Source of the DNA: a virus
DNA: 64,000 nucleotides
Reading direction: 5' to 3' (one strand)
IMG/VR virus record: IMGVR_UViG_3300021419_000004
Coordinates: 4,460 to 68,459 of that record
The position numbers and the translations under genes are program-made. Shown here piece after piece: positions 34,758 to 49,198 of the stretch. Position 1 is the first letter of the stretch; each line of letters begins with the position of its first letter. The notes under the pieces are model-generated. The model ran no database searches, was not told where the DNA came from, and was given only the letters and a program-made list of their open reading frames with translations.

Positions 34758-35819
34758 ATGTCGTCTCTCGCACTGTCCTGGCTCTCCCGTCAGCATGAGC
34801 TCAACGCACCCTTCCAAGAAGGACCGCAGCGCATTGGACCCGGGGGTATCCCGGACATGAGCGACATGCGCGGGCGCCTCTTCGGCGTCCCAGGCTTCCA
34901 CCGCTGGTCTGACCGCAAGAAGGTGCGCAAGCTGCGCGAAATGGCCGAAGCCTATGGCAACGACCCGCGCATGCGCTTCTTCACGGTCAACTCGGTGCTG
35001 AGGCCGGCGGGGGCCACCGACTTCCGCAACTACCGCCAGGTGGCGGAGACCCTGCTCAAGGCGGTGCAGGACGCCGGAACGCTCGGCATCATGTACACCA
35101 ACGAGCCCAATGAGCAGCTCCAGTCCCCGTGGTGGACACTCAAGGTGCGCACGGGGGACTGCGATGACATGTCTCTCTTGCTCGCTGCAATGGCGCATTC
35201 CGTCCGCCTGCCCTGGCGCTTTGTGCTGGCGGGTACTGCCCGGGGCGGACGGGCCCGATGGGCGGAGGGCGGCCGCATGCCTCGAGGCTTCCGCGCCAGC
35301 CACATCTACCTGGACCTGGGCTGGCCTCCCTTCTCCGAGGGCAAAAAGGATGCTCACGGACGCCCGGTCACCCAGTGGGCGCCGGCGGAGCCAACCCTGC
35401 GCGGTCTGCCCCTCGGGCATGACGTGGTGCTGCACGGCATCCCTGGTCAGGGACAGCGCCTGGATCTGGGCGGCGGGGTCGCCGGACACACGGCCGGGCC
35501 CTCCTGGGGCGGCTTCACGAACGGGGCCTACGGCGACTTCGGCGGCACCATCTACAGCCGCCGCGCCAACTGGGGCGACGCTGCGTTGGCGAGCAACGGA
35601 TCGACCGGTGGATCGACCGGTGGATCCACCGCGGAGGAGGAGGTCTACTACCTCCAGCCGACCAACGGCGCCCTCGCCCAGCTCCAAGACAAGCCCCTGG
35701 TCGGCATCGTCGCCCGGGCTGTCGCGTCCCTGGACGCATCTCTCATCCTCGCGGAGGCCATCGGGGCAGTCATCCAGGCTGTCATCGTGTCCTACGCCCT
35801 GTCCAAGCTCAAGCTGTAA
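34758..35819 (+). CDS. Transglutaminase-like cysteine protease (putative virion maturation enzyme)
   Basis: QSPWWTL...GDCDD (Cys), SHIY (His), WAPAEPT (acidic); first gene of the structural operon. Confidence 0.85.
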   Translation: MSSLALSWLSRQHELNAPFQEGPQRIGPGGIPDMSDMRGRLFGVPGFHRWSDRKKVRKLREMAEAYGNDPRMRFFTVNSVLRPAGATDFRNYRQVAETLLKAVQDAGTLGIMYTNEPNEQLQSPWWTLKVRTGDCDDMSLLLAAMAHSVRLPWRFVLAGTARGGRARWAEGGRMPRGFRASHIYLDLGWPPFSEGKKDAHGRPVTQWAPAEPTLRGLPLGHDVVLHGIPGQGQRLDLGGGVAGHTAGPSWGGFTNGAYGDFGGTIYSRRANWGDAALASNGSTGGSTGGSTAEEEVYYLQPTNGALAQLQDKPLVGIVARAVASLDASLILAEAIGAVIQAVIVSYALSKLKL

Positions 35820-35837
35820 CGCCAAGGAGACGAGACC

Positions 35838-36221
35838 ATGGCTGCAACCGAGATTGAGTCCTTCCTGACCCCTGAGACCTGCGAACGGGCCTACCGCATC
35901 GCGCGTCAGTGCCAGGAGAAGCGTGACTACGAGCGGGCCAGCTACGGCCTGCGCGCCGCCCGGGACCGCAACCCCAAGCTCCTCAAGACCCTGGAGGCGA
36001 TGGCCGAGGCCACCGACAAGGCCGAGGAGAACCAGCGCGGGCGCACCCGTCGCGGCATGTCCACGACCCACGCGGACAAGGCCAAGGCCACCGAGGTGTC
36101 CCTCTGCCGTGAGGCCTACAAGGCCGTGGACAGCAACAACCAGCCCGTCATGGGTCACTTCCAGTTCATCTACTACGGCGCCGCGTGCGTCGCCGGACTC
36201 GTCACAGGCCCCTACGGGTAG
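35838..36221 (+). CDS. Putative virion protein
   Basis: AAGGAG RBS; SYG, RDRNP, ends GPYG. Confidence 0.7.
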   Translation: MAATEIESFLTPETCERAYRIARQCQEKRDYERASYGLRAARDRNPKLLKTLEAMAEATDKAEENQRGRTRRGMSTTHADKAKATEVSLCREAYKAVDSNNQPVMGHFQFIYYGAACVAGLVTGPYG

Positions 36222-36254
36222 GCCACCAGCGGCTGGAGCCGCAAAGGAGATCAC

Positions 36255-36935
36255 ATGCTCGTGCCCATCAACGGTGCCTTCGGCTCCATGGACGCTGCCT
36301 ACGGAGATGCCTACGGAGCGTCCTACGGCGCCAGCAGCTGGCTGGCCGAGCGCCGCCGCAACCTCAAGAAGGCCCGTCAGCGCGTGATCGCCGCCACCAA
36401 GAACCAGGCCGCCCAGGCTCAGTCCCGCGGCTACCTGGTCCCCACCTCCTCCGCCGCCCAGGCCGGTTCCGCCGCCTGGACCGGCCGGACTCGCTTCTTC
36501 CAGAAGCCCGGCTTCGTGGAGCGCTACCAGTCCCTGCCCACCGCCGTGAAGGCAGGCACTGCGGCCATGATCCCCGGCATCGGCCCTTGGCTGGCCGCCG
36601 GCATCCTGGGCAAGAAGGTGGTCGAGGTGGGCACCAGCCGTCGCAAGGGCAGCGTCGGCACCAGCATCCGCAAGGGGCCGGGCGGAGCCACTGTCGGCCG
36701 CGGGCCTCGAGGCACCAGCGCCTACACCACTGCCAACGACCTCTACGCCGCCCAGGATGCCTTCTCCCAGGGCTACCCGGCCGAGGGCGCCGCTACCTCC
36801 TCCGAGACCGCAGTGGCTGAGGTCTCCGCACCGAGCTACGGCCTGATGGCGGTCGGCGCCCTCCTGTTGGCCGGTGCCGGCTACGCCCTCTTCAAGCGCT
36901 TCAAGAAGGGCAAGAAGAGCAAGAGCAAGAAGTAG
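36255..36935 (+). CDS. Tail-anchored virion membrane protein
   Basis: AYGDAYGASYG N-terminus; C-terminal TM plus KRFKKGKKSKSKK. Confidence 0.75.
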   Translation: MLVPINGAFGSMDAAYGDAYGASYGASSWLAERRRNLKKARQRVIAATKNQAAQAQSRGYLVPTSSAAQAGSAAWTGRTRFFQKPGFVERYQSLPTAVKAGTAAMIPGIGPWLAAGILGKKVVEVGTSRRKGSVGTSIRKGPGGATVGRGPRGTSAYTTANDLYAAQDAFSQGYPAEGAATSSETAVAEVSAPSYGLMAVGALLLAGAGYALFKRFKKGKKSKSKK

Positions 36936-36944
36936 GAGGCACCC

Positions 36945-37631
36945 ATGTCCGCCTGGAGCAACAGCAGCAACTGGGGGCACCCAGTCGCGGGAGCTGCAGC
37001 ACCGTCTGTGGCCGCCACACCTGCGTCTTTCGCGGGCTACGGGGACCCCTTCGTGCGCCCGCAGATGGCCGGTCCGCAGGTGGCGGCCTTGGGCAGTGAC
37101 GCCAAGGTCAACCGGCTGCTGTCAACCAAGGCCAGCGCCGAGCTGGCGAGTGGCTACTACAAGGGCGGCGGCGGCTACACCTACCTGTGGGACGCACCCT
37201 CGGCGACCATCACCATCGCAGCCGGGCCCACGGGCGCGGGCTCCCAGCTCTCCCCGGGGCACACCTACTACAACGCCGTGCTGACGGAGCTCTACCGCAT
37301 CGGCGCTCCCAACACCTCCAGCCCCACCGGCAGCGCAGGCAGCTCGGCAGCGGCCGCCGCGGCGGACGCAAGTGGTGCCGGTGGGATCTCTGGCGGCAGC
37401 CGCTTCGCCAACATCGTCTCCGGCCTCAGTCAAGCAGCCACGACCGCCGCGGCGCTGACCTCCCAGGTCGCCGCAGCCAAGGCGGCCCAGGCCGCCACGG
37501 CAGCGCCAGCAGTCGCAGCTCCGGCGCAGATGGCGCCGGCAACGCCCTCGCGCCTGCCCTGGATCCTGGCCGCTGTTGGTGGAACCGTGGTTCTCGGACT
37601 CATCTTCGCCACCCTCCGGAAGCGCCGATGA
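36945..37631 (+). CDS. Tail-anchored virion membrane protein
   Basis: AGYGD; LPWILAAVGG TM plus RKRR. Confidence 0.75.
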   Translation: MSAWSNSSNWGHPVAGAAAPSVAATPASFAGYGDPFVRPQMAGPQVAALGSDAKVNRLLSTKASAELASGYYKGGGGYTYLWDAPSATITIAAGPTGAGSQLSPGHTYYNAVLTELYRIGAPNTSSPTGSAGSSAAAAAADASGAGGISGGSRFANIVSGLSQAATTAAALTSQVAAAKAAQAATAAPAVAAPAQMAPATPSRLPWILAAVGGTVVLGLIFATLRKRR

Positions 37632-38311
37632 GTACCGCTCAGCTGGCCGGAACGGGTGGGCGCTGGGGAGCTGCGTCTCCCTGGGGTGCCTATGGCCGCG
37701 GCGGCGCTGTCCTCAGCACCGTGGGCGCCGGCCTGCAGAACATCGACTGGCAGCAGACCGGAGAGGCCCTGAGCCAGGCCGGCGCTGCCGGCGTCAGCAT
37801 CTACAGCAACATCTCCGCCATCAAGGCTCAGCAGGCCGCCGAGCAGGCCGCAGCCAACCAACTCGCCCTCCAGGCCTCCGCGCCAGCGCCTGTTGTCTCG
37901 ATTCCGACGGGCTCCGGCGTCCTGCCTTGGGTTGTGGCAGGAGTGGCAGGCCTGGGGGCTTTGGTGCTGCTGCTCCGTGGTCGCGGGAAGGGCGGCCGCC
38001 GCAAGAACCCCTATGGCGTCGAGCCGGTCACCATCATCACCGGCCTGGCCACCGGCATCTCCGCCCTCGTGGGCGCCGCCAAGGTCGGGTACGACATCCG
38101 CAGTGGCAAGCGCGCGGAGCGCATGAGCCAGACGATGGCAGCTCACCAGCAGCTGCAGGCAGCTCAGACCGCGGCCTACACCGCAGGGGCCCAACAGGCC
38201 GGCGCCGAGCTCCAGCGGGCTCAGCAGGCGCGCAGCCTCAAGACCTTCGGAGCACTCGCCGTTGTCGGCGTGCTCGTCTACCTGTTCTACAAGAAGCGGA
38301 GTTCCAAGTGA
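37628..38311 (+). CDS. Two-unit membrane protein (TM-RRKNPYG-unit-TM)
   Basis: ATGA overlap; two TM plus basic segments. Confidence 0.75.
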   Translation: MSTAQLAGTGGRWGAASPWGAYGRGGAVLSTVGAGLQNIDWQQTGEALSQAGAAGVSIYSNISAIKAQQAAEQAAANQLALQASAPAPVVSIPTGSGVLPWVVAGVAGLGALVLLLRGRGKGGRRKNPYGVEPVTIITGLATGISALVGAAKVGYDIRSGKRAERMSQTMAAHQQLQAAQTAAYTAGAQQAGAELQRAQQARSLKTFGALAVVGVLVYLFYKKRSSK

Positions 38312-38988
38312 ACCAGCCTCTCCAGTTCTCCCAGGATCCGGGAATGACGCCCGTCCCTCTCCCCCAGGGCCGCATGCAGATGCCGGCAGGGGCCCAGTCC
38401 GGTGGCGGCAAGCTGCCCGCCCTGCGTCCGGTGCCCCAGGGCTACATCCACGGCCGAAGTGCTGAGCTGCCCCTCGACGTGGAGGCGGATCTGGAAGGGG
38501 GGCCTGCCGTGAATGTGAAGCACCTGCTTCTGGGAGCTGGGGCCGGGTACGCCGTGGGCGGCCCTGTTGGCGCCCTGGCTGGCGGCATCGTGGCCCACAT
38601 CCTGGGCAAGCGGTCGTCTCAGCACGCCTACCAGATGCCGGACAACACCGTCGGCTATGGCGCCACCTACGGAGACGCCTGCAGCCGCTGGCAGCGCAAG
38701 TACGAGCGTTACGCCCGCAAGGGTGGCAAGCGCCGAGACAAGTGGGCCGACAAGAACTACTCCAAGGCGGCTGCTGCAGGCTGCGCCTGGACCCAGCCTG
38801 AGGGCGTCCAGCAGATGCTCCAGGGCCAGATGCCGGACGTGACCAGCTATCAGACCCAGGGCTACCAGGAGGCCATGGCTGCGGCTGGTGGGACCGGAGT
38901 CGGTGGCGGCAACGCGGCCTCACCGGTGTTGCTGGTCGCCGGTCTGGGCGCAGCCGCGCTGGGCCTGATCTACATGTTCACTCGCTGA
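38308..38988 (+). CDS. Two-unit membrane protein (glycine-zipper TM, GYGATYGD, C-terminal TM)
   Basis: GTGA overlap. Confidence 0.75.
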   Translation: MNQPLQFSQDPGMTPVPLPQGRMQMPAGAQSGGGKLPALRPVPQGYIHGRSAELPLDVEADLEGGPAVNVKHLLLGAGAGYAVGGPVGALAGGIVAHILGKRSSQHAYQMPDNTVGYGATYGDACSRWQRKYERYARKGGKRRDKWADKNYSKAAAAGCAWTQPEGVQQMLQGQMPDVTSYQTQGYQEAMAAAGGTGVGGGNAASPVLLVAGLGAAALGLIYMFTR

Positions 38989-39035
38989 GCGCTGAGCGCC
39001 AGCACACCGCGCCCCGGGGCGCAAAGGACGAGACC

Positions 39036-39290
39036 ATGAGCAAGAAGTTCGCCAGCAAGGGTCAGATCAAAGAGCAGCTGCAGGACGCCGTGGAGAAGGT
39101 GGCTGAGAAGCTCGAGGCCACCAACATCCAGGCCGACGAGCTCCCTGAGCTCTCCGCCAAGTTCACCATCGCCCTGACTTCGACCATCGAGGCCGCCAGC
39201 GACAAGCGCTTCACCTTCACTGAGCTGATGGATGTCGGTGCCAAGTGGAGGGCCTTTGGTGCTGCCTGGAAGGCCGCCCGCCAGGACTGA
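39036..39290 (+). CDS. Small helical protein
   Basis: AAGGA RBS. Confidence 0.7.
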   Translation: MSKKFASKGQIKEQLQDAVEKVAEKLEATNIQADELPELSAKFTIALTSTIEAASDKRFTFTELMDVGAKWRAFGAAWKAARQD

Positions 39291-39316
39291 GAGCGCGCAA
39301 GCGCTGAGGAGCCCCT

Positions 39317-39742
39317 ATGCCCTGCACCTGCCATCAACGCGCCTCCCACGGCTACCTGGGCTACCAGGGCTACGGGAATGCGCACTACGGCAACGCGGAC
39401 ACCGATACGCCTGAGGCCGAGTCGTCCTCCTGGGAACAGTACGCGCCCCTGGTGACGGCAGTGGTCGAGGGCACCTCTGACCCCCACAAGCAGGCGTTGC
39501 TGTGGGAACAGCGGCTGGTGACGCTGCAGAAGGCAGGCTTCTCCCCCGAGAGCGCCGCCTACCGCAGCGCAGAGGCTCGGTACCAGGCTGCCCTTCGCGC
39601 CGCCGGGATGGAGCTCGAGGAGGAGCAGTCCACGCGCGAGTGGCGGGCCCTCGGCAAGGCTGGCATCGCTACTGGCATTGTCGTCGGTATCGGTGTCCTG
39701 GTGGCGCTGGGCGTGGCCATCGGCCGCGGAGGCAAGAAGTGA
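39317..39742 (+). CDS. Tail-anchored virion membrane protein
   Basis: GYLGYQGYGNAHYGN; C-terminal TM plus RGGKK. Confidence 0.75.
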   Translation: MPCTCHQRASHGYLGYQGYGNAHYGNADTDTPEAESSSWEQYAPLVTAVVEGTSDPHKQALLWEQRLVTLQKAGFSPESAAYRSAEARYQAALRAAGMELEEEQSTREWRALGKAGIATGIVVGIGVLVALGVAIGRGGKK

Positions 39743-40425
39743 GCATCCAGGCTGCCCGCATCCAGCGACAGGCGGAGCTCCTCAAGCAGCTCAAGCCGGC
39801 CGGCACCTTGCGGAAGAACAAGCGAGCCCGCAAGAAGGCCAAGCGGAAGTTCTCCGGCACGGCTGTGGCGCGTACCAACGCCGCAGGCAGCAAGCGTTGG
39901 ATGTGGTGGGCAGCTGCGGGCACAGGCGTCGCTCTCATCGCGGGCAGCCTCTTCAAGCCGGTGCGGGGGCTCCTGCGCGGGTTGGGCATCGGAGGTGTGG
40001 ACCATCCCGAAGCCTGGGCGGTAGACCGTAGTGCAGCCGCCCTGGACGAAGCTGCTCGGGAGACCAGCGACGCTGCGCTGTCGGACAACTACAGCCGTCT
40101 GTCCCAGCTCGTCGCCTCCGGAGGCGTCTGGGGCCAGGATCGCAGCGCGGCGGACATCCTCATCGGGACCGCGGCGATGATCAACTACCAGGCAGCCCCG
40201 GTGGCCTCCAGCCGGCTCCGGCTGTTCATGGCGGACCGAGGGGTGAGCTGGAAAAGCGGCGGCACCGTCGTCACAGATGCTGAGCTCGCTGAGCTGGAGG
40301 ACGTGGTAGGCTGGCGCTCGATGTTGCCGGCCTGGCGCCCCTCCCTGGGACTGGCTGGTGCCGGTGCAAGCCTGGTGCTCGTCGGCATCGTGGGCACCAT
40401 GCTCACGCGGAGGAAGAAGCGATGA
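39739..40425 (+). CDS. Basic N-terminus, two-TM membrane protein
   Basis: RKNKRARKKAKRK; ends TM plus RRKKR. Confidence 0.75.
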   Translation: MSIQAARIQRQAELLKQLKPAGTLRKNKRARKKAKRKFSGTAVARTNAAGSKRWMWWAAAGTGVALIAGSLFKPVRGLLRGLGIGGVDHPEAWAVDRSAAALDEAARETSDAALSDNYSRLSQLVASGGVWGQDRSAADILIGTAAMINYQAAPVASSRLRLFMADRGVSWKSGGTVVTDAELAELEDVVGWRSMLPAWRPSLGLAGAGASLVLVGIVGTMLTRRKKR

Positions 40426-41159
40426 ACGCGATGACCACGACCATTCAGCCGGGCATGCCCCGGGCCAAGGCAACGGCGACTGGCGTCGGCCTCCGCTCTC
40501 TCCCCTGGATCATCGGCGGCGCCATCCTCGCCAAGGCCGGCGGCTTCCAGCCCGCTGCGGGTGCGTTCATGGGCCTGGGCATCGGGGTGTCCCTGGGCCT
40601 GCGGCGGGCAAAGGAGCAGGAGCTCCTGGGCAGCGCTGGGTCTCCGGTCCTGCAGGACGCCGCTGCCAGCGTGGCGACCGCGGGCATGGCCGACGCGGAC
40701 ACCCTCAAGACCGCCTGGAACTACTGGACCAAGTGGGGTGTGCGTGGCGGGCTCGAGAACGTGGCCTATGAGGCCGAGGAAGCTGCGGCCGAGGCTGCAG
40801 GTGCTGCCGGGGGCATCGCCGCAGCTGCGCAGCAAGCCTACAAGGATGAACTGGAGCGCCGAGAGCAGGAGCGCAAGCGCAAGCGCATGGAGCGCATCCT
40901 CAAGATCGGCGGTCTGAGCCTGCTGGGTCTGGTCATCGCCGGTGGGGTCGCTGGCCGGGCGGCGGGCGGGACTCGTCGGCGGAACCCGGCGAAGGACAAG
41001 GGCCCCAGCTGGCTCGCCGTTGGCCTTGTGACTGCCCTGGCAGCTGCGGACACCGTGACGCCCGGGTTCCCCTTCCCGGGCTCCGCCGTGGTACTGGTAC
41101 CAGCGGCTGCCGCAACCTGGCTGGCCAAGCTGAGCGCCATGGGTGTGAAGCTCCGCTGA
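40422..41159 (+). CDS. Multi-TM membrane protein with RRRNP motif
   Basis: LPWIIGG TM; GGTRRRNP. Confidence 0.75.
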   Translation: MNAMTTTIQPGMPRAKATATGVGLRSLPWIIGGAILAKAGGFQPAAGAFMGLGIGVSLGLRRAKEQELLGSAGSPVLQDAAASVATAGMADADTLKTAWNYWTKWGVRGGLENVAYEAEEAAAEAAGAAGGIAAAAQQAYKDELERREQERKRKRMERILKIGGLSLLGLVIAGGVAGRAAGGTRRRNPAKDKGPSWLAVGLVTALAAADTVTPGFPFPGSAVVLVPAAAATWLAKLSAMGVKLR

Positions 41160-41168
41160 GAGGACGAC

Positions 41169-41888
41169 ATGAGACTGCTGAACCAGGGCATCCGCAACAT
41201 CGCCGCCCGGCTGGGGATTGACCAGGCCTGGGAGGACTCCGAGGAGGCCGCCCAGGACGCCTACGAGTCCCACCACTGGGGCCACAAGCATGACGGCACC
41301 ACCTTCACCGACGACCATCCGGACGCGCCGGCGGTCTCGACGGAGATGGGCAAGCTGCTGGCGCTGGGGGTCATTCCCATCGGCAAGCGAGGTACTCCCG
41401 ACCGACGGGCCGCCAAGGCCATGCACCACTGGGAGAAGCGCCTCGAGCTCAACCCGGAGAAGGTGCCGGGCGAGGATGAGGGCATCGCCGAGCTGTGGTT
41501 CAACGGCCGGAAGGACCCGCGCTGCATCGTCAGCTTCACGCCTGCATCGGAGCTCCTGCACCTGGCGCTCCCTCCCGATGAGCAGAAGCGCATGCAGGCC
41601 TACTTCCGTAGCGCGCACCTCTACCCCCTGGGCGAGCTGGCCGGTATCCGCGGTGGTCGAGCTGCTGAGGGTGATGAGCGTCAGGTTCCGGTGGCGCTCC
41701 TGGGTGAGCTCGCCTGGGTGATGTACCTCACCGACAAGAAGGGCGATGGCGTCAGTGAGTACGTGCACGGCATGGGCACGGAAGGCCGCTTGACCCCGAT
41801 GCGCCCCTACCTGTGTGTCGCCGAGGATGGGTCCCTGTGGCTCGCCGGTGGCAACTACGAGGTCAAGTCCGTCGGGATCAGCGGATGA
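41169..41888 (+). CDS. Soluble protein of the structural module, unknown function
   Basis: YESHHWGH, LGELAWVMY...EYVH...PYL...LAGGNYEV..GI. Confidence 0.75.
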   Translation: MRLLNQGIRNIAARLGIDQAWEDSEEAAQDAYESHHWGHKHDGTTFTDDHPDAPAVSTEMGKLLALGVIPIGKRGTPDRRAAKAMHHWEKRLELNPEKVPGEDEGIAELWFNGRKDPRCIVSFTPASELLHLALPPDEQKRMQAYFRSAHLYPLGELAGIRGGRAAEGDERQVPVALLGELAWVMYLTDKKGDGVSEYVHGMGTEGRLTPMRPYLCVAEDGSLWLAGGNYEVKSVGISG

Positions 41889-42532
41889 GGCGTGGGTGGC
41901 TGTGGCTTGCGGCGGTGACGCTGCCTGCAGTCACCGGGCTGTTGGCGTGGTGGTACCGCCGCAGGACCGTCTTGTCGCTACCCGGCCAAGAGGAGAGCAT
42001 CGTGGCAAAGGTCTACCAGTGGACGGAAGAGCTGATGTCCGGCACCGAGGAGACGGAGGTCGAGGGTGTCCGGGCCAAGAAGGGCGTCGTCTTCACGCCC
42101 CAGATCCTGACGGGCCTGCAGCGCCTGCGGGACGCCCTCGGGCAGGATGCCTACGGGCTCGTGGTCACCGACGGCTGGCGCACCCCTGAAGTACAGGCTG
42201 CCCGGCTGTGGAGCAAGTACCTCAAGGGCACGACCATCCGAGGCAAGTACACTCCGCCCGGCTTTGGTGCGCTCTACGCGCTCTACAAGGCCGACTGGAT
42301 CATCGCCAAGCTCGAGGAGGCCGGCGCCAGCAAGAGCGCCTGGGCCAGTGTGCTCAAGAAGCTGGCGAACCAGGGCTACTACCTCAGCGACCACCAGCGG
42401 GGTGATGCCTTCGACCTGCGCACCCGCGGCATGCCCGCCGACGACCGTGCCAAGATCCTCGCAGCCGTGAAGGCCCTCGGCGGGTCGGCATTGGACGAGG
42501 GCGACCACATCCATGTGGAGAATCTGGGATGA
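41885..42532 (+). CDS. Membrane-anchored peptidase M15 (Hedgehog/DD-peptidase fold) peptidoglycan hydrolase
   Basis: VTDGWRT, SDHQRGDAFD, DHIHVE; N-terminal TM. Confidence 0.85.
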   Translation: MRRGWLWLAAVTLPAVTGLLAWWYRRRTVLSLPGQEESIVAKVYQWTEELMSGTEETEVEGVRAKKGVVFTPQILTGLQRLRDALGQDAYGLVVTDGWRTPEVQAARLWSKYLKGTTIRGKYTPPGFGALYALYKADWIIAKLEEAGASKSAWASVLKKLANQGYYLSDHQRGDAFDLRTRGMPADDRAKILAAVKALGGSALDEGDHIHVENLG

Positions 42533-42780
42533 CTCTTTCCGAAGCCTTGGAAGCCTACGGGCGCCTCGCCCCTGCCGACAATGCGCTATCCCGACGCGTG
42601 TACGCGGCTATGCCCCAGCTCTCCGACCCGCCCACGCGGGAGGAGCTCATCGAGTGGCTGGCCTGGAATGACCCCAACGGCGTCTACTACGACGAGGACA
42701 TGCTCTATGAGTTCGGTGAGGTGCTGACCCTGGAAGAGGCCCAGGATCTCTTCATCGAGACGATGGAGGAGGCGGGCTGA
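42529..42780 (+). CDS. Small acidic protein
   Basis: REELIEWLAWNDPNGVYYDE. Confidence 0.7.
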   Translation: MTLSEALEAYGRLAPADNALSRRVYAAMPQLSDPPTREELIEWLAWNDPNGVYYDEDMLYEFGEVLTLEEAQDLFIETMEEAG

Positions 42781-43136
42781 TGCCCCGCTTCCTCATCTAC
42801 CTCACCTTGCCTGCCGTGGAACTCATCAGGCCGGCGGCGCTGGTGCGGGGAGTCTCGAAGGTGGCCCTGGGCGTCGAACGGAGCAGGGCTGGTGACGGCG
42901 GCTTCTACAAGGCGTACCGGAGAGCCGGCGGGGACCCAGACAAGCTCTCCGACTACTGGATCCAGAAGAGGGATGCCTTCATCGCCCGCCACCGCGCCCA
43001 GATGCGGGAGCGCGGGTCGAATGGCTGGGAGAAGGTGGGAGGCGAGTGGAGGCCAACCCGCCAACATCTGGCGCTGGCCGCCTGGGCCTACTCACCATCT
43101 CCCGACCGGCTCATCCGCTGGGCTGAGAGCCAGTAG
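42780..43136 (+). CDS. Hypothetical protein
   Basis: W..KRDAFIARH...PTRQHLALAAWAYSP. Confidence 0.7.
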   Translation: MPRFLIYLTLPAVELIRPAALVRGVSKVALGVERSRAGDGGFYKAYRRAGGDPDKLSDYWIQKRDAFIARHRAQMRERGSNGWEKVGGEWRPTRQHLALAAWAYSPSPDRLIRWAESQ

Positions 43137-43146
43137 CGCCAGCAGC

Positions 43147-43386
43147 TCAGCCGAGGTGCCCCAGGCTCGCGGGGCCCGGGTTGCTGCTCACCTTGATGGC
43201 CTTCTCCAGCTCGGGGGTCATCTGGCCTTTGCGCCTGGCCTCTTGCACCAGGACCCACAGGGCCATCGCTTCCTCCACGGCCGCAACCAGCGAGATCTGA
43301 CGCCATCCGCGCATCATGTCGAAGTTGCGCTTGATGGCCGTGCGGACATCGACGCGCACGCTGGATCGGCTTTGGGGTGTGGCCAT
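43147..43386 (-). CDS. Putative ribbon-helix-helix DNA-binding protein
   Basis: SVRVDVR beta strand followed by two helices (SLVAAVEEAMALW); GGAGG RBS. Confidence 0.55.
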   Translation of the reverse strand: MATPQSRSSVRVDVRTAIKRNFDMMRGWRQISLVAAVEEAMALWVLVQEARRKGQMTPELEKAIKVSSNPGPASLGHLG

Positions 43387-43600
43387 GTGGATGCAGTCCT
43401 CCGGACCGTCCTGTGGCCCGTGGAGGGACCATAGCACAGGTGCAGGAAGTGTGAAAGGTGCGAGAGGTGCGCAATAACCGGAGTATCTCAGGTGAATCGA
43501 GCTTCGTCCCTTGGACTGCTCTACCGCCTCCGCTACGGTCCAAGTGTCTCGAGCCCACCGCGGGTCTCGGAACCTTCATTCCCACCCCGAGGAGGCCCCC

Positions 43601-44437
43601 ATGGCCGTGCGCAAGCGCAAGACGCGCAAGAGCACCAAGCGCCGCCGGAAGAACCCGGTGCGCGGCGTTGGCACGCTCGTCCTGAACCCCCGCCGCAAGC
43701 GTCGGCGCCCGGTCAAGCGGAAGCGTCCCGTGAAGCGCCGCGTGGCAGCTCGCCGGAAGCCGGTGCGTCGCCGCAGGCCCGCCGTCCGTCGGCGCAAGGC
43801 TGTGGCTCGTCGTCGCCCGGTGCGGCGTCGTCGGCCCGTGCGCCGGAAGGCAACGCGTCGCCGCAACAGCGCCGTCTACATGCGGAAGACCAACCCCAAG
43901 CGCCGCCGGCGCAGCAAGGCCAAGGTCCGCTACAGCCGCAAGAAGAACAGCGTCCGGCGTCGCCGGAACCCGGGCTTCGCTGGCATGCTCAAGAAGATCC
44001 CCTTCATCGGCAAGCCCCTGGCCGCCATGGTCGAGGCCCTCCCCGCTGCTGCCCTGGGCGCCATCGGTGTCGAACCCACCATGATGCTCGCCAAGTTCGT
44101 CGGGCCCTACGTGCCCCAGATGAACCCGGCGATCTTCTACGCCCTGACCGGCTCCCTCCTGGCCGGCATCATCGGCTCCACCTCCTTCCTGGGCGCCGCC
44201 TTCCACAAGAAGCTGGCCATCGCGGTGGCTTCGGCTGCCGGCGGTGTCGCCTACTACAAGTGGCGGACCGAAGGGCCCATGTCGGACATGCCGACCGAGA
44301 TGGCGGGTCTCCCCTCCTACTCCGGCATCGGCAACGTCCTGGGCCTCCCCGACTACGGGGACACCGGCTACGCCGTCGTGCCCATGGCAGGCCTGCACAC
44401 CCAGCCCCTCGCGGGCCCCGGTGGCTACCCCCGCTGA
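43601..44437 (+). CDS. Arg/Lys-rich protamine-like DNA-condensing protein with C-terminal membrane domain
   Basis: About 125 aa R/K-rich region punctuated by NP motifs, then about 3 hydrophobic helices; GGAGG RBS. Confidence 0.8.
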   Translation: MAVRKRKTRKSTKRRRKNPVRGVGTLVLNPRRKRRRPVKRKRPVKRRVAARRKPVRRRRPAVRRRKAVARRRPVRRRRPVRRKATRRRNSAVYMRKTNPKRRRRSKAKVRYSRKKNSVRRRRNPGFAGMLKKIPFIGKPLAAMVEALPAAALGAIGVEPTMMLAKFVGPYVPQMNPAIFYALTGSLLAGIIGSTSFLGAAFHKKLAIAVASAAGGVAYYKWRTEGPMSDMPTEMAGLPSYSGIGNVLGLPDYGDTGYAVVPMAGLHTQPLAGPGGYPR

Positions 44438-44443
44438 CTGAGT

Positions 44444-44467
44444 GCGGCCCTGGACAACCAGGGCCGC
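44444..44467 (+). other. Perfect 10-bp hairpin upstream of the capsid candidate
   Basis: GCGGCCCTGG-ACAA-CCAGGGCCGC. Confidence 0.7.
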
Positions 44468-44550
44468 CTCACCCTCGCTTCCCCGCTCGCAAAAGAGCAC
44501 CTGGCTGGGCCGATTGAGGCCCTCACTCCTACCCCCCAAAGAGGTACACC

Positions 44551-45237
44551 ATGTTCCCTTCTCTCGGCGCTCCCGGCCAGGTCGTGGCTGGCGGAAACCC
44601 CACCGCCCTCGCTCCGATGGCCCTCCCCAAGTCCGTCGTCCGCATCGGCGAGCAGGCCATCTGGTCCACCCAGCAGTACGCTGACGCGACCGCCCTGGCC
44701 CGCAACGAGGACATCCTGTTCTCGACCCCCCAGAACGGCACCGGCCAGGGCTTCGCGGCCCCGCTGAGCCTCGCGGAGACCAACCTCCGTGAGTCCAGCC
44801 GCATCCCCGGCGGCTACGCCTACACCGTCCAGGCCATCGCCCTGCAGACCTACTACGCCGACCAGTGGGCCATCGTGCGCGCTGACGTGGCGAACCTGGT
44901 CAACAACTGCGTCCCCCAGTGGTCCTTCCTCCAGGTCCGCATCGAGATCGCTCCCGCCCAGCTCATCGGCGCCGGCGGCGGTGTGTACGGCGACACCGCC
45001 GACACCGGTGCGGCCGACGGTGGCTCCGGCGGTTCCCGGACCACGCTGAACAACGGCAACGGGCAGGTGTGGGTCTACCGCGCCCACCCGGTCGCCCTGC
45101 CCGCGAACAGCACCTACAACATCGTCCTGAGCTGGGGCGCCAACGCCTCCGCGGTGGACGGCGGCCAGAACAACAGCTCGCAGAACGTGCGCTGTGTCCT
45201 GCTCGGCACCTTCGAGAGCGCGATCCCCATCGCCTGA
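44551..45237 (+). CDS. Putative major capsid protein (single jelly-roll-like)
   Basis: Beta-rich, LFSTP...ETNL....RIP..Y.V.AI pattern; strong C-ending codon bias; flanked by hairpin and terminator. Confidence 0.55.
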   Translation: MFPSLGAPGQVVAGGNPTALAPMALPKSVVRIGEQAIWSTQQYADATALARNEDILFSTPQNGTGQGFAAPLSLAETNLRESSRIPGGYAYTVQAIALQTYYADQWAIVRADVANLVNNCVPQWSFLQVRIEIAPAQLIGAGGGVYGDTADTGAADGGSGGSRTTLNNGNGQVWVYRAHPVALPANSTYNIVLSWGANASAVDGGQNNSSQNVRCVLLGTFESAIPIA

Positions 45238-45286
45238 CCGAGGGCGGGTCTTCCCGCTGGCCTCGGCCCTTCTCGGGCCACCACAG

Positions 45287-45328
45287 GGCCGGGGCCCCTC
45301 ATCTGAGGTGGTCCCGGCCTTTTGCTTT
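45287..45328 (+). terminator. Rho-independent terminator after the capsid candidate
   Basis: GGCCGGG...CCCGGCC stem followed by TTTTGCTTT; extra hairpin 45238-45266. Confidence 0.75.
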
Positions 45329-45339
45329 CAGGAGCTCCG

Positions 45340-46002
45340 ATGAGCAAGCCCTTCGTCCCGGCCTGGCTGCAGGGCCAGTACGGCCAGCAGGTCCAGTTCC
45401 CCAAGGACTACCGCGCCTCCCTCTCCCCTCCCACCCTGGGTCAGATGGCCCAGGCTGCCGCCAACGCACAAGCAGCGCAGCAGGCTCAGGCAGCTGCGCA
45501 GGGAGCACCCATGCATCCCCACATGACCGGAGCTCCCACCTGGCAGCGCGAGCAGGTCTACTACCCGACCCCGCTCCTGCCGGAAGCCCCCAACCTGGCC
45601 AAGACGCCGCGCGACATCGTGCTGCGCTTCACCAACCAGGCCGTGGGTCAGGAGATCTTCCTGCCGCTGCAGGTGGACATCCCTGGCGTCATCTACGCCG
45701 TCTCCGGAGGTGCCTACACCACCGACGACTCCAACCTGCCCGTGGGCCGTGATCCCCTGGACACCTTCCTGGTCCGCATCGAGCGCAACAACGGCGACCG
45801 CTTGCAGACCCAGGCGGGGTTGGGCTCGGCTGTCGTGGGCCCCGCCCGCTTCCCCCGTCTGCTCGGCGGCCCTGGCTATGTGTTCCAGCGTGGCGCTTCG
45901 CTGCGGGTGGCGGTGACGCCCCTGATCGCCAACCTGGACATCACCATCTGCTGCTGGATCATGGAGATCCGCGGTCCCACCAACATCTCGGCCGTGGGCT
46001 GA
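45340..46002 (+). CDS. Putative second capsid/penton protein (jelly-roll-like C-terminal domain)
   Basis: Disordered N-terminus plus about 8 predicted beta strands. Confidence 0.5.
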   Translation: MSKPFVPAWLQGQYGQQVQFPKDYRASLSPPTLGQMAQAAANAQAAQQAQAAAQGAPMHPHMTGAPTWQREQVYYPTPLLPEAPNLAKTPRDIVLRFTNQAVGQEIFLPLQVDIPGVIYAVSGGAYTTDDSNLPVGRDPLDTFLVRIERNNGDRLQTQAGLGSAVVGPARFPRLLGGPGYVFQRGASLRVAVTPLIANLDITICCWIMEIRGPTNISAVG

Positions 46003-46013
46003 GGAGGTAGATC

Positions 46014-46496
46014 ATGAACACGATGTTCCCCCACACCGTCGGCATCACGCCGGGGCTCAACAACACCATGGCGCTGGGCCTGGGCCTGTACCCGGATGCC
46101 ACGCAGTCGATGAACTACGACAACGAGAGCAACTCGCCCTCCCCGGGCGACACCCTCACCGGCGGCACCTCGGGTGCCACCGGCACCGTCATCGGCGTCT
46201 CTCCCCTGGTGGCGGCGGGCTCCCGCAACGTCTACCTGGCGGATGTGGTCGGCACCTTCCAGAACAACGAAGTGCTGAGCGTCGGAGCCACCACCATTGG
46301 TGATGCCAACGGCACCAACACCTCCTACGACCCCAACACCGACGACCCCCTGGTCAGCATGTACTTCGTGGACGTGGCCCCCAACGGGGCGGTCCAGGGG
46401 AACAAGGGCGACATCGCCATCTTCCTGGGCGGTGCCACCGCAGCCTACTACGGCTGTGACGGCGGCTCCGTCTGGCGGCAGTTCACCCTCGTCTGA
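46014..46496 (+). CDS. Virion spike/vertex protein
   Basis: GDTLTGGTSGATGTV...GTFQNNE and APNG..G.KGD...W structural motifs. Confidence 0.6.
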   Translation: MNTMFPHTVGITPGLNNTMALGLGLYPDATQSMNYDNESNSPSPGDTLTGGTSGATGTVIGVSPLVAAGSRNVYLADVVGTFQNNEVLSVGATTIGDANGTNTSYDPNTDDPLVSMYFVDVAPNGAVQGNKGDIAIFLGGATAAYYGCDGGSVWRQFTLV

Positions 46497-46502
46497 TCTG
46501 CT

Positions 46503-46610
46503 ATGAGCACTGCCCTGGGGTATCTTGGGGCAGTGCTCGCGTGGCTGCGGCCACCTCCGGCCGCCTCGCGCGGCCTCTCCTCTCTCTGGACCTTGGAGCG
46601 CTCCCCATGA
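46503..46610 (+). CDS. 35-aa peptide (not in ORF track)
   Basis: MSTALGYLGAVLAWLRP...; stop overlaps ATG 46607. Confidence 0.4.
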   Translation: MSTALGYLGAVLAWLRPPPAASRGLSSLWTLERSP

Positions 46611-47350
46611 AGCCGAAGCCGACCGGTCAGCCCGTGATGCCTGTGGCAGCTCCTACTCCGACCTCTCCAGTGGTCGGGGCCCATGCCCTCCCCGGCCCCA
46701 GCCTTGCGGGCCACGGACAGATGGCCGGCCCCGAGCATCTGGCCGGCAACGTCCAGGGAGCTGGACGGCATCCCTTCTACGGCTACCCGAACCTGTGGGC
46801 AGGCGCCGATGCATCGGCGCCTGCTGAGGCAGGAAAGGAGATCCGGGCCTTCTACGGGGAGACCCTGGTTGTCCCTGCAGCAGCCTGGGAGACCAACCCG
46901 GCCAACTTTGAGCCGGACACGCCGGACGACGTGGTGGCCCAGTACATCTGGGAGGGCCCGCTGCTGGACTTGCGGAAGGACCTCAAGGGCTCCTTCGGCA
47001 ACGGCCTGCACGAGGCGACGACCATCGGCCGAGCTGGCAGCTACGGCTCCGGCGTCAAGATGACCATGCTCGCCCGCATCGAGGGCATCAACATCCCGGA
47101 CTATCCGGAGACCCTCCGGGTGTTCAGCCGGGAGGCCCTCAGCCCCTTTGACTCCCGGGACATTCAGACGGTCACCGAGTGGCAGGAGATCTCCACGGAC
47201 TGGTGGTCCGGGGGCGCTGCCGTCAACCTCACCTGGAGCCCCCCGGGCGCCCCCATCCGCTTCTGGCGCGTCTACCTGCGCCTGGACCAGGCCTCCGGAA
47301 CCGCGCCTGCGGACACGCCCCTGCTCCGCCTCCAGCCCAACGCCCAGTAG
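46607..47350 (+). CDS. Beta-rich virion protein
   Basis: GGAG RBS; beta-sandwich-like C-terminus. Confidence 0.6.
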   Translation: MKPKPTGQPVMPVAAPTPTSPVVGAHALPGPSLAGHGQMAGPEHLAGNVQGAGRHPFYGYPNLWAGADASAPAEAGKEIRAFYGETLVVPAAAWETNPANFEPDTPDDVVAQYIWEGPLLDLRKDLKGSFGNGLHEATTIGRAGSYGSGVKMTMLARIEGINIPDYPETLRVFSREALSPFDSRDIQTVTEWQEISTDWWSGGAAVNLTWSPPGAPIRFWRVYLRLDQASGTAPADTPLLRLQPNAQ

Positions 47351-47359
47351 GACAGAACC

Positions 47360-47734
47360 ATGCCTTTCGAAGGATCGGAACAGTGGGGAGCTACCCGGGT
47401 CGCATCGGCGCAGACCAGCCAGGAGCGTGAGATCAGCGCACTGGCTGGCGGCTCCGACTACACAGGCCAGACCCAGGCAGTCAACAACCTGCCGCACCAT
47501 ACCCTCTACATCCGGCAGGACTCCGGGGATCAGCTGTGGGACGTGACTGTCGAAGTGCTGCACTCCACCGGCACTTGGCGCCCCATTGACGAGTTCACCA
47601 TGACCGGCATTGGCGGACCGACGCTGTTCCGCGAGTACCGCGTGGTGGCGGAATCCATCCGCGTCGAAGTCTCCAACCCGCCTGTGGGAGCACCCTCGGG
47701 CGGTTGGTACATCCTCTCCTCCTTCTCGCTGTAG
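47360..47734 (+). CDS. Small jelly-roll-like vertex protein
   Basis: 124 aa all-beta pattern (VTVEV...W...IRVEVSN). Confidence 0.55.
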   Translation: MPFEGSEQWGATRVASAQTSQEREISALAGGSDYTGQTQAVNNLPHHTLYIRQDSGDQLWDVTVEVLHSTGTWRPIDEFTMTGIGGPTLFREYRVVAESIRVEVSNPPVGAPSGGWYILSSFSL

Positions 47735-47743
47735 GAGCTCTCC

Positions 47744-48556
47744 GTGAGCCAGTACGTCATCCGCATTCGTGAGCGTCAGGGCAAGGGCAAGATCCGTGCC
47801 GAGCTCCCTGGCACCTTCACTCAGGCCAAGGCAGTGAAGACCGGTCAGTCCATCGCTGACGACTACTCGTTGCCCGCGGGGTGCAAGGTGGTCGTGGAGA
47901 AGAAGGGAGGAGCCAGGCGCAAGAAGGCCGCAAAGAAGCCCCGTAAGCCGGCACGCAAGGCGGCCCCGAAGCGTGCATCCAAGCGCAAGAGCAACCCTCA
48001 CCGCCCGACCCTGACGATGCTCCTCAACAAGGGTGAAACGCTCAGCTGGGCCAAGAAGCGCAAGCCGGGCTCAACGGTGACCATGGGCCAGGGGCACAAG
48101 GGCTTCGCCGTCATCGACTGGACCGTGCCTGGGGGGAAGGAGCACCACTACAAGACCCCCAGCGGCGCCATCAAGCGCTTTGAGGAGCTGGTGGGCACCC
48201 AGGGCGCCTACAAGGCCATTGCTGCGTGGGAGCAGAAGCACGGCAAGCTGGCCGCAGCGGGTCGCATGGGCGACCTCGAGAAGGCCAGCAAGCAGGCGAG
48301 CCGGCGCAAGAACGCGGGCAAGCGCAGCAAGAAGTGGATCCAGAAGGCCGACGCGCAGATGGAGAGAGCAGGCACCGAAGGGGCCTTCACCGCCCAGGCC
48401 AAGCGCGCCGGCTACGACGATCCCTTGAAGTACGCCCGGCACGTCAAGAAGACCTATGAGGCCGCCCGCAAGAAGGGCAAGACCGCCGGCAGCAAGGGTG
48501 TCCCGACCTTGCGCACCTACCGCCGGGCGATGTTCGCGCTGAACGCGCAGAAGTAG
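47744..48556 (+). CDS. Histone-like basic virion core protein
   Basis: KKAAKKPRKPARKAAPK, KRKSNP, KKWIQKA...GAFTAQAKRAG. Confidence 0.7.
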   Translation: MSQYVIRIRERQGKGKIRAELPGTFTQAKAVKTGQSIADDYSLPAGCKVVVEKKGGARRKKAAKKPRKPARKAAPKRASKRKSNPHRPTLTMLLNKGETLSWAKKRKPGSTVTMGQGHKGFAVIDWTVPGGKEHHYKTPSGAIKRFEELVGTQGAYKAIAAWEQKHGKLAAAGRMGDLEKASKQASRRKNAGKRSKKWIQKADAQMERAGTEGAFTAQAKRAGYDDPLKYARHVKKTYEAARKKGKTAGSKGVPTLRTYRRAMFALNAQK

Positions 48557-48594
48557 GGGCAGGAGAGGACGGGGAGCCCTGATCGAGGTCTCCT

Positions 48595-49197
48595 ATGGCA
48601 GGCAGCAACAACTTCCAGGGCCCCGTCATCCTGACGGAGCTCGACAGCTACTTCGCCTGGGGGCGTCAAGGCCCGGGGGTGTCGAGCCACGTCCGCGTCT
48701 ACCGAGTGGACTACGACCCGAATGGAGTGCTCGCAGCTCCTCGGGGTAGCTGGGCTCTCCGGGACGATGCGGGGCAGGTGGCCGCCTACCTGAACCAGGA
48801 TGGTGCCTCGACCTGGGCCAAGCTGGTCCCTAACGGAGGAGGCACCGCCGGCCTGGTGATGCCCCTGGAGAAGGAACTGCTGCCTTTGGGTGGGGATGAC
48901 ATCACGGACTCCGTGAGGGTCAATGCAGCGGGCACCATAGTCGAGGTGCTGTTCTACTGCAGCGTGGCCTACACCACGGCCGGCTCTTTCACCATCGACG
49001 TGCAACTGAACAGCGTCAGCGTGCTCAGCGCTGTGGTGGACGGCACGACTATTCCGGCACTCCCCGGGGTGCTCACGGCGCCGCTGGCGGCATCTACGCC
49101 CCTGGCCGCGGGGGATGTCCTCTCAGTGGTGCTTTCCAGTGACAACGCAGACCTGGCTGGGGCCGGGCTCACGGCTGTTTTTCGGACGGAGGCCTGA
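48595..49197 (+). CDS. Virion spike/decoration protein
   Basis: DPNGVLAAPRGS...W module plus beta domain ending LAAGDVLSV...AGLTA. Confidence 0.6.
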   Translation: MAGSNNFQGPVILTELDSYFAWGRQGPGVSSHVRVYRVDYDPNGVLAAPRGSWALRDDAGQVAAYLNQDGASTWAKLVPNGGGTAGLVMPLEKELLPLGGDDITDSVRVNAAGTIVEVLFYCSVAYTTAGSFTIDVQLNSVSVLSAVVDGTTIPALPGVLTAPLAASTPLAAGDVLSVVLSSDNADLAGAGLTAVFRTEA

Positions 49198-49198
49198 G

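Follow-up and report, generated by a model that had tools for sequence, protein, structure and literature searches.

In the window analysed here, a stretch of 64,000 nucleotides from the IMG/VR virus record IMGVR_UViG_3300021419_000004 (positions 4,460 to 68,459 of that record), we observe that a run of basic residues followed by Asn-Pro (NP) is a genuine signature at the protein level, and that its home is the arginine-rich arm of a core protein encoded at 43601-44437. The motif exists, is enriched, is conserved and is restricted to basic contexts, with its Asn being steadier than its Pro. All instances listed in the original prediction, which had read them as a second processing or virion-targeting signal with Asn-Pro bonds as candidates for self-cleavage, are present in the genes named. 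Enrichment across homologous genomes, proposed there as a check, is found both in 101 arms of the core-protein family (546 NP pairs versus 58.9 expected) and in the other proteins of the same loci (20 sites versus 2.3), and the motif is kept throughout a large family, contrary to the lack of conservation that had been named as a ground for giving the prediction up. The core protein and the motif instances of the window are located as follows.

43601-44437, plus strand: three-part core protein of 278 residues (arm, hydrophobic membrane domain, tail), the main carrier of the motif
43601-43972, plus strand: arginine-rich arm, residues 1-124, with 66 Lys plus Arg, 0 Asp or Glu, 6 Asn and 10 Pro
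43973-44296, plus strand: hydrophobic (membrane) domain of ~105 residues, conserved (alignment A3)
43640-43657, plus strand: RRRKNP, site 1, ending the N-terminal basic leader of gene 43601-44437
43673-43690, plus strand: TLVLNP, site 2, followed by RRKRRR, part of the conserved N-terminal signature G-x-h-h-h-(x)-N-P-basic
43853-43870, plus strand: RRRNS variant, gene 43601-44437
43880-43897, plus strand: RKTNP, gene 43601-44437
43934-43951, plus strand: RKKNS variant, gene 43601-44437
43955-43972, plus strand: RRRRNP, last site, at the boundary between arm and membrane domain of gene 43601-44437
37994-38011, plus strand: GRRKNP, gene 37628-38311
40971-40988, plus strand: TRRRNP, gene 40422-41159
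47981-47998, plus strand: KRKSNP, gene 47744-48556
48299-48316, plus strand: RRKNA, gene 47744-48556
36348-36365, plus strand: RRRNL, gene 36255-36935
35958-35975, plus strand: RDRNP, gene 35838-36221

The core-protein gene has a third-position G+C of 0.88 and an AGGAGG-like site ahead of its ATG, and it lies directly upstream of a jelly-roll, capsid-like gene (44551-45237). Its arm consists of Lys and Arg to 53%, which suggests low complexity, and its tail has 46 residues. VLNP, which had been grouped with the basic sites, is indeed present but is different in kind, belonging to the separate conserved N-terminal signature. The window arm contains a 59-residue Asn-free stretch built of RRRPV-type units that break the arginine runs. 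These RRRPV-like units occupy the middle of the arm (43691-43852), an Asn-free run unlike most relatives, and PV is the commonest dipeptide after basic runs (5 cases).

For the window, counts were made on 30 plus-strand proteins (7130 residues); two genes, 38308/38344-38988 and 42529-42780, were omitted from this set, and both are free of NP. A site is called strict when at least three of the four residues preceding NP are Lys or Arg (K/R) and loose when at least two are, and expectations come from 1000 shuffles in which K/R positions were fixed and all other residues permuted within each protein. The 30 proteins hold 19 NP pairs, five of which are strict (0.13 expected) and seven loose (0.53 expected), and none of the 1000 shuffles reached the observed strict or loose count, figures to be read with the caveat that the motif was defined after being seen. 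Eight of 55 basic runs are immediately followed by Asn, which makes up only 2.5% of residues. Codons vary from site to site, indicating a protein-level pattern, and AACCC is spread over all frames; a DNA-level repeat behind the motif is ruled out by both observations. Two high-G+C phages served as controls. P23-77 (68% G+C, membrane-containing) has no strict site and one loose site (0.60 expected), and phiC31 (64% G+C) has no strict site and five loose ones (1.18 expected); since the loose form is also enriched in phiC31, the strict form alone is specific. A picornavirus 2A-like NPGP is absent among the 19 NP contexts, with the last core-protein site reading RRRRNPGF.

With the jelly-roll protein 44551-45237 as bait, we collected 92 loci (L001 to L092), comprising 8 viral contigs, 4 genome bins and 80 of 143 confirmed metagenome loci; two are duplicates. 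Searching IMG/VR with the single jelly-roll protein gave no close relatives, and an alignment query gave the 8. The G+C content of the 37 loci of at least 8 kb ranges from 32 to 70%, and the parent contigs measure 39-150 kb (loci with the full 10-kb flank kept). BLAST homologues of the core protein are found in 25 of the 92 loci, and the gene immediately before the jelly-roll gene is of core-protein type in nearly every locus with sufficient upstream sequence. Asn follows 88 of 204 basic runs in the locus homologues, versus 9.3 expected. A profile of the hydrophobic domain (A3, 11 sequences) retrieved 170 proteins at E ≤ 0.001 among 1.84 billion 50%-identity representatives, and contigs of the family come from marine, freshwater, groundwater and soil metagenomes. 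From the best 150 of the 170, we kept the 102 that are full length with at least 80 residues ahead of the domain (101 arms when the domain is delimited by local hmmsearch); these representatives share less than 50% identity.

Across these arms the pattern is pervasive. Their composition in the 102 representatives is 28% Arg, 10% Lys and 7.0% Asn, with Asp, Glu and Gln each below 1%, and Asn comes first after 341 of 1211 basic runs versus 137 expected from arm composition. The residue after such a run-ending Asn is Pro in 183 cases, followed by Gly (39), Thr (38), Ala (28), Ser (22) and Arg (15). Taking all 998 arm Asn together, Pro follows in 55%, and K/R stands at position -2 in 69% and at -1 in 49%, versus a base rate of 38%; downstream, K/R stands at +2 in 42% and at +3 in 52%. 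The excess of NP is confined to the arms, since outside them the same 101 proteins have 21 NP versus 18.7 expected. Asn precedes 68% of arm prolines, with 546 NP versus only 16 SP, 9 TP, 9 GP and 0 DP. None of the 101 arms is free of NP and 86 have at least three, the number of sites per arm having a median of 6 (range 1-12) and their spacing a median of 17 residues (quartiles 10-24). Three positions keep their place: an optional basic leader that terminates in NP, the N-terminal signature of a short hydrophobic strand, NP and basic residues (strict form in 67 of 102 arms, relaxed form in 94 of 101, with 44 distinct contexts in the loci), and the last basic-Asn site, for which 87 of 102 representatives have [KR][KR]N at most 40 residues ahead of the membrane domain.

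The Asn of these sites is kept while the Pro varies. In the window protein and the five representatives nearest to it (44-57% identity over the hydrophobic domain), site 1 (43640-43657) has Asn in 6/6 and Pro in 5/6, with one NS, and site 2 (43673-43690) likewise has Asn in 6/6 and Pro in 5/6, with one NR. At the column of the RKKNS site, four of these five relatives have NS, NS, NT and NG, and the other one lacks Asn. Aligned Asn residues across relatives show NP/NT, NP/NR and NP/NS exchanges, and L037 and L042, whose arms are 92% identical, differ at one site by NT versus NP. Overall, 45% of arm Asn are without a following Pro, and the arm sites do not show the strictly conserved Asn-Pro pair of Asn-Pro self-cleaving proteins. 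Pairwise conservation within the arms (Asn 0.65, Pro 0.69, Gly 0.68, Arg 0.78) is given little weight because low-complexity alignments are unreliable. Thus, given also the RRRPV breakers, Asn is the constant element and Pro its preferred follower, and other breakers can substitute.

The motif is not limited to the core protein: other proteins of the gene block carry weaker echoes of it in their basic leaders, loops and tails. After removal of 78 core-protein homologues or positional equivalents, 761 other distinct locus proteins remain, in which we find the 20 strict sites mentioned above (maximum 8 in 200 shuffles), two of the 20 being near-identical copies of one protein; Asn in general is barely enriched after basic runs in the same proteins (58 versus 41.7). 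Eight of the 20 sites lie in the first 70 residues (basic leaders), four in the last 30 (basic tails) and the rest are internal. Within the window, the motif is common to four to five proteins, and besides the core protein its carriers are the following.

37628-38311, plus strand: protein with three hydrophobic helices and a basic C-terminal tail, with GRRKNP in the loop between helices 1 and 2
40422-41159, plus strand: protein with two hydrophobic segments, with TRRRNP after the first
47744-48556, plus strand: modular basic protein, with KRKSNP after a small N-terminal domain and RRKNA before a C-terminal module of ~80 residues

The original prediction had the motif mark domain junctions in other proteins. 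In 47744-48556 a site follows the N-terminal domain; in 37628-38311 and 40422-41159, GRRKNP and TRRRNP sit in short basic loops of 10-12 residues between hydrophobic helices, which are hairpin loops and not joints between separate domains; neither of the latter two proteins has a BLAST homologue in the 92 loci. The N-terminal domain of 47744-48556 is followed by PRRRNT in its 889-residue homologue in L003 and by KPRRNP in L004:13811-14752. RRKNA of the window protein aligns with TRRKNY in L003, which runs on with RRNP exactly at the stop of the window protein. The L003 protein (L003:12276-14945, 889 residues) reads as a chain of modules of ~80-225 residues, with six strict basic-Asn sites between modules (residues 89, 184, 292, 517, 601 and 791), and its modules one and five match the ends of 47744-48556. 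The two-NP N-terminal signature was also seen on a 204-residue protein that is unrelated to the core protein (L001:11384-11998), which starts with a basic leader ending in NP and then a short hydrophobic strand ending in NP.

Two of the listed instances fare less well. RDRNP in 35838-36221, counted as a member of the motif in the original prediction, occupies a position at which 11 of 14 homologues have Asp (nine of them Asp-Pro) and one each has Ser, Glu or Asn, with Pro following in 11 of 14; it is an ordinary Asx-Pro position that a conserved protein retains, and a different motif. For RRRNL in 36255-36935 nothing but its presence speaks in favour, and this gene has no homologues in the 92 loci.

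To gene boundaries we applied a test in which a gene's C-terminus is aligned inside a longer homologue and a basic-Asn site is looked for within -4 to +10 residues; the N-terminal comparison of split and fused genes was too noisy owing to uncertain start codons, so that only the C-terminal version was used. Basic-Asn sites are near 5 of 11 such fusion/fission boundaries (1.36 expected), with two of the five sharing one boundary, in a methyltransferase-HNH fusion that is not a particle protein. L082:10892-13333 and L007:5414-7204 each join methyltransferase and HNH-like modules, one in the reverse order of the other, with basic-Asn sites at the joins; in other loci the modules are separate genes.

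As for what the motif does, the reading we favour, tentatively and at somewhat less than even odds, is that Asn, with or without Pro, forms a turn or helix cap that ends the arginine runs and leaves the protein uncut. Asn, usually as Asn-Pro, would break the chain at the end of each arginine run; the arm would thereby be split into segments of ~10-24 residues that neutralise the packaged DNA, and the motif would separate the arm from the hydrophobic or folded part next to it, with the protein staying in one piece. Its composition suggests that the arm neutralises DNA or acidic lipid, and we infer both that turns form and that cleavage does not take place. The turn or cap is favoured because position +1 varies among turn-compatible small residues, because NP changes to NS, NR or NT in close relatives with Asn kept, and because RRRPV breakers replace NP over the 59 Asn-free residues of the window arm. 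It is favoured also because the sites in 37628-38311 and 40422-41159 are loops between hydrophobic helices, because up to 12 sites occur per arm, so that cutting all of them would leave very small fragments, and because the RDRNP position in 35838-36221 is so often Asp-Pro in its homologues (9/14), Asp-Pro being a classical helix-start pair.

A number of observations weigh against the turn or cap. Turn propensity alone leaves the near-exclusive use of NP unexplained (546 versus 16 SP, 9 TP, 9 GP and 0 DP), Asn is rare (2.5%) in a genome of 67% G+C, and the context is asymmetric, with K/R more frequent at -2 (69%) than at the base rate (38%) or at +2 (42%). Motifs are found near 5 of 11 fusion/fission boundaries, the end of 47744-48556 coincides with the very point at which L003 goes on with RRNP, and the two-NP signature on the unrelated L001 protein resembles a portable signal. 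The proposed DNA binding by the arm is read from its composition.

The strongest competitor of this reading is maturation cleavage at basic-Asn-(Pro/small) during or after particle assembly, which would be a bacterial-virus counterpart of adenovirus pVII and pre-mu processing and which we consider possible but less likely. Cleavage would release arginine peptides of ~17 residues from a membrane-anchored precursor and separate fused modules, either through Asn-driven self-cleavage at Asn-Pro or through a transglutaminase-like Cys-His-Glu enzyme encoded in the block (34758-35819). The motif is conserved and confined to basic contexts, several proteins are headed by basic leaders ending in NP, and the near-exclusive Asn before Pro counts for cleavage because succinimide chemistry would require Asn. 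The boundary excess points the same way, as does the C-terminal module of 47744-48556, which is flanked by RRKN-A and the stop codon here and by RRKN-Y and RRN-P in L003; the enzyme is conserved and membrane-anchored, with invariant Cys, His and Glu, and the median spacing of 17 residues resembles the 19 residues of adenovirus mu. On the other hand, Pro is not kept where Asn is (45% of arm Asn have no Pro after them), most proteases avoid cutting before Pro, and where these viruses have natural tail-anchored proteins, the chains finish with K/R rather than Asn. One of the boundary cases is the methyltransferase-HNH fusion, and the conserved block protein 41169-41888 shows no protease-like fold (best Z 3.1). 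Asn-Pro autocleavage is itself established at Asn42-Pro43 of aquareovirus VP5 and reovirus mu1, where it serves particle maturation (PMC9148132), and in the anti-sigma factor RsgI, just past the membrane helix in a turn beside a beta strand (PMC10328401); these established cases lie inside folded domains, whereas the sites here lie in low-complexity arms. The earlier idea of a recurring signal at boundaries is supported by the conservation of the motif, its enrichment in other locus proteins and the 5 of 11 matches. Against Asn-Pro-specific self-cleavage as the general mechanism weigh the replacement of Pro, the mere 55% of arm Asn that precede Pro, the 59 Asn-free residues of the window arm and the loop positions in 37628-38311 and 40422-41159. 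A specific scenario, in which a membrane-anchored precursor is built into the particle and then cut at Asn by Asn-driven chemistry or by the transglutaminase-like enzyme, with ~17-residue arginine peptides travelling with the DNA and the same sites separating fused modules, strikes us as unlikely.

We regard as improbable that the motif is in essence an incorporation or targeting tag, in which the N-terminal signature would be portable and dock proteins on the particle or on a conserved partner, with the internal sites being degenerate copies of it; such a tag would be compatible with both the turn or cap and cleavage. No piece of the arm is better conserved than the signature (67/102 strict, 94/101 relaxed), which persists in distant loci with only weakly basic arms, heads the unrelated L001 protein as well, and is resembled by internal units such as LAVRTN and LLVRAN. 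Yet L001 is the one clear case outside the core-protein family, and the hydrophobic strand is missing from most basic-NP proteins of the window. That the motif is a mere by-product of amino-acid or codon bias in basic, high-G+C sequence is very hard to believe: the loose enrichment in unrelated phiC31 (5 versus 1.18) and the unsupported RRRNL and RDRNP would fit, but no shuffle with fixed K/R positions reaches the window counts (0/1000), codons differ between sites, the motif holds in loci of 32% to 70% G+C, the 9-fold excess of NP in arms has no equivalent in the rest of the same proteins, and the strict motif is missing from both high-G+C control phages.

Among known systems, the adenovirus core proteins, the SPK(K/R) repeats of sperm histones and the Asn-Pro self-cleaving proteins come closest in function; none shows a sequence relationship, and each differs in at least one defining feature. 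In adenovirus, pVII and pre-mu (pX) are very basic DNA-condensing core proteins matured by the adenovirus cysteine protease, and mu has 19 residues. The likeness consists in a very basic protein in a jelly-roll-capsid(-like) setting with a short recurring motif and mu-like spacing; here too a highly basic protein is encoded in a structural block next to a jelly-roll gene, and a cysteine-type enzyme is encoded there. Unlike in adenovirus, however, there is no sequence relation (Pfam and PHROGs are blank), the motif is basic-Asn-Pro rather than (M/I/L)XGX-G, arm and membrane domain are joined in one protein, and the host is bacterial. An adenain-related cysteine protease was not found (no adenain-type family appears in Pfam scans of window proteins), and a transglutaminase-like Cys-His-Glu enzyme is present instead.

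A second comparison is with the SPK(K/R) motif, which has a turn structure; Asn, like Ser, can form a side-chain-to-backbone turn before Pro. SPK(K/R) motifs are found in the sperm-specific histones H1 and H2B (PMC9903204), and the likeness lies in short X-Pro units repeated in basic tails, which are DNA-compacting in the histones. Here Asn takes the place of Ser/Thr (NP 546, SP 16, TP 9) and therefore no phosphorylation switch is expected, and the constraint on basic residues is tighter ahead of the unit than behind it (+2 42%, +3 52%, base rate 38%). With VP5/mu1 and RsgI the arms share the same dipeptide; in those proteins the site is single, strictly conserved and in a folded domain, whereas each arm here has 1-12 sites, set in low-complexity sequence, and their Pro is often replaced. 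The likeness to Thermus phage P23-77 (GQ403789) and other membrane-containing viruses with single jelly-roll capsid proteins (Helvetiavirae-like, SPV1-like) consists in high G+C, small membrane proteins, a putative jelly-roll capsid protein and the clustering of structural genes around the capsid genes. Such viruses would also have a second capsid-protein gene and an FtsK/HerA-type packaging ATPase. P23-77 differs in having no arginine arm protein and no strict basic-NP site, and in its size of 17 kb versus the contigs of 39-150 kb here.

Literature searches for such a virus family or motif gave no fitting description under the terms used. What is new would be a viral DNA-condensing core protein that is membrane-anchored and capped by Asn-Pro, in bacterial viruses. 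To our knowledge, cultured bacterial viruses do not pack their DNA with membrane-tied protamine-like proteins, and here a whole uncultured lineage appears to encode one. The family is a widespread uncultured lineage of bacterial viruses with no match among GenBank phages. The rule is simple and countable and gives a handle for recognising these viruses and annotating their core proteins. If cleavage is true, it would bring adenovirus-like core maturation into the bacterial virosphere, as a polyprotein-like system without a described precedent in bacterial viruses; if the sites act as turns and nothing more, the arm would still be a new design for DNA neutralisation, with arginine runs capped by Asn-Pro.

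In many core-protein homologues the hydrophobic domain is followed by long acidic repeats of the G-x-L-E-L-x-M-D-G-Y or LALDNMG type (examples are L025:7879-9936, L035:665-2263 and L085:4849-6633), which makes the protein strongly bipolar, and the window tail is short. The proteins that surround the core-protein gene include a marker of the family and the sole candidate protease in the block.

44551-45237, plus strand: jelly-roll, capsid-like protein, the family marker, directly downstream of the core-protein gene
34758-35819, plus strand: transglutaminase-like Cys-His-Glu enzyme (Pfam Transglut_core, E 2.4e-05), the sole candidate protease in the block

The jelly-roll protein has 105 homologues in a collection of 5.8 billion proteins, and its AlphaFold2 (AF2) model is a beta sandwich with a mean predicted local distance difference test (pLDDT) score of 80.7. 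Its best fold match is the SPV1 capsid protein (Z 8.1, root-mean-square deviation 3.7, 138 residues aligned), with further jelly-roll matches to HHIV-2 (Z 6.6), HCIV-1 (6.1) and P23-77 VP17 (5.7) and VP16 (5.5); Foldseek with the same model gave no match at E ≤ 0.001. As the Z values are within the commonly seen range and Foldseek is blank, the label of capsid-like jelly roll is reasonable but unproven. Two or three tandem jelly-roll paralogues are seen in several loci (L068:9306-11474, L049:5198-6666, L055:3690-5163, L069:10004-11465, L086:10019-11484 and L045:340-1828). The window has one jelly-roll copy and then an unrelated conserved gene, 45340-46002, and a relationship of the jelly-roll alignment (A1) to the neighbouring family A5 was rejected (hhalign probability 0.2).

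In the transglutaminase-like enzyme, the Cys of GDCDD, His182 and Glu211 are invariant in 10 of 10 sequences, and a hydrophobic helix is found at the C-terminus (residues 314-332). It could be a protease, and we found no link between it and the motif. A copy in L002:1422-3137 has an insertion of ~290 residues shortly after the catalytic Cys region, which could be an intein. The family of 41169-41888, found in 46 of 92 loci, is the most conserved block protein without an assigned function. Its Trp, Lys, Ser, Tyr and His are invariant and its Asp and Glu nearly so, and it has a GGNY..GI end; several members begin with an Asn-containing basic leader. Its profile gave nothing at E ≤ 10 against PDB sequences and no usable match in the ESM Atlas, and its candidacy as a protease was dropped, as the AF2 model (pLDDT 73.5; best fold match Z 3.1) supports no known fold.

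The window lies on a single contig of 68,459 bases with a G+C content of 67%, which is cut off inside genes at both ends. About 32 co-directional plus-strand genes follow each other in series from about 28.1 to 52.3 kb, with high third-position G+C and GGAG-like sites ahead of their starts. Pfam and PHROGs searches (30 + 31 proteins) leave this structural block almost blank, the Pfam exceptions being the transglutaminase-like core and an M15 peptidase (41885-42532). Scans of the window proteins with Pfam and PHROGs found no terminase, portal or tail genes, and with Pfam no packaging ATPase family in the window, the contig being incomplete at both ends. Among GenBank phages, there was no megablast match to 35000-50000 and no tblastn match to the jelly-roll or core protein. 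The host is taken to be bacterial because of a sigma-70-type gene and Shine-Dalgarno-like sites; clues to a particular host are weak, the labels of the four genome-bin hits being in conflict.

Many proteins of the window and of loci L001-L092 end in a hydrophobic helix and a short K/R tail, those of the window being 36255-36935, 36945-37631, 37628-38311, 38308/38344-38988, 39317-39742, 39739-40425 and 34758-35819. In loci and window together, 49 of 67 events of a helix with a basic cluster are at the very C-terminus, and these ends are K/R, not Asn. The proteins with helix and basic tail, together with the jelly-roll protein, point to a particle that would have an internal membrane, with basic tails and arms lining the inner face of that membrane.

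One arm of the contig holds replication and recombination genes, in which Pfam recognises a D12 adenine methyltransferase, a RecD/Pif1-like helicase, a helicase C-terminal domain, the sigma-70-type factor and a tyrosine recombinase. To the left of the window, an open frame of 1229 residues (G000:C1:3-3692) extends past the end of the contig; judged by eye only, it resembles a uracil-DNA-glycosylase-like domain fused to a family-A DNA polymerase, with an intein-like stretch interrupting it.

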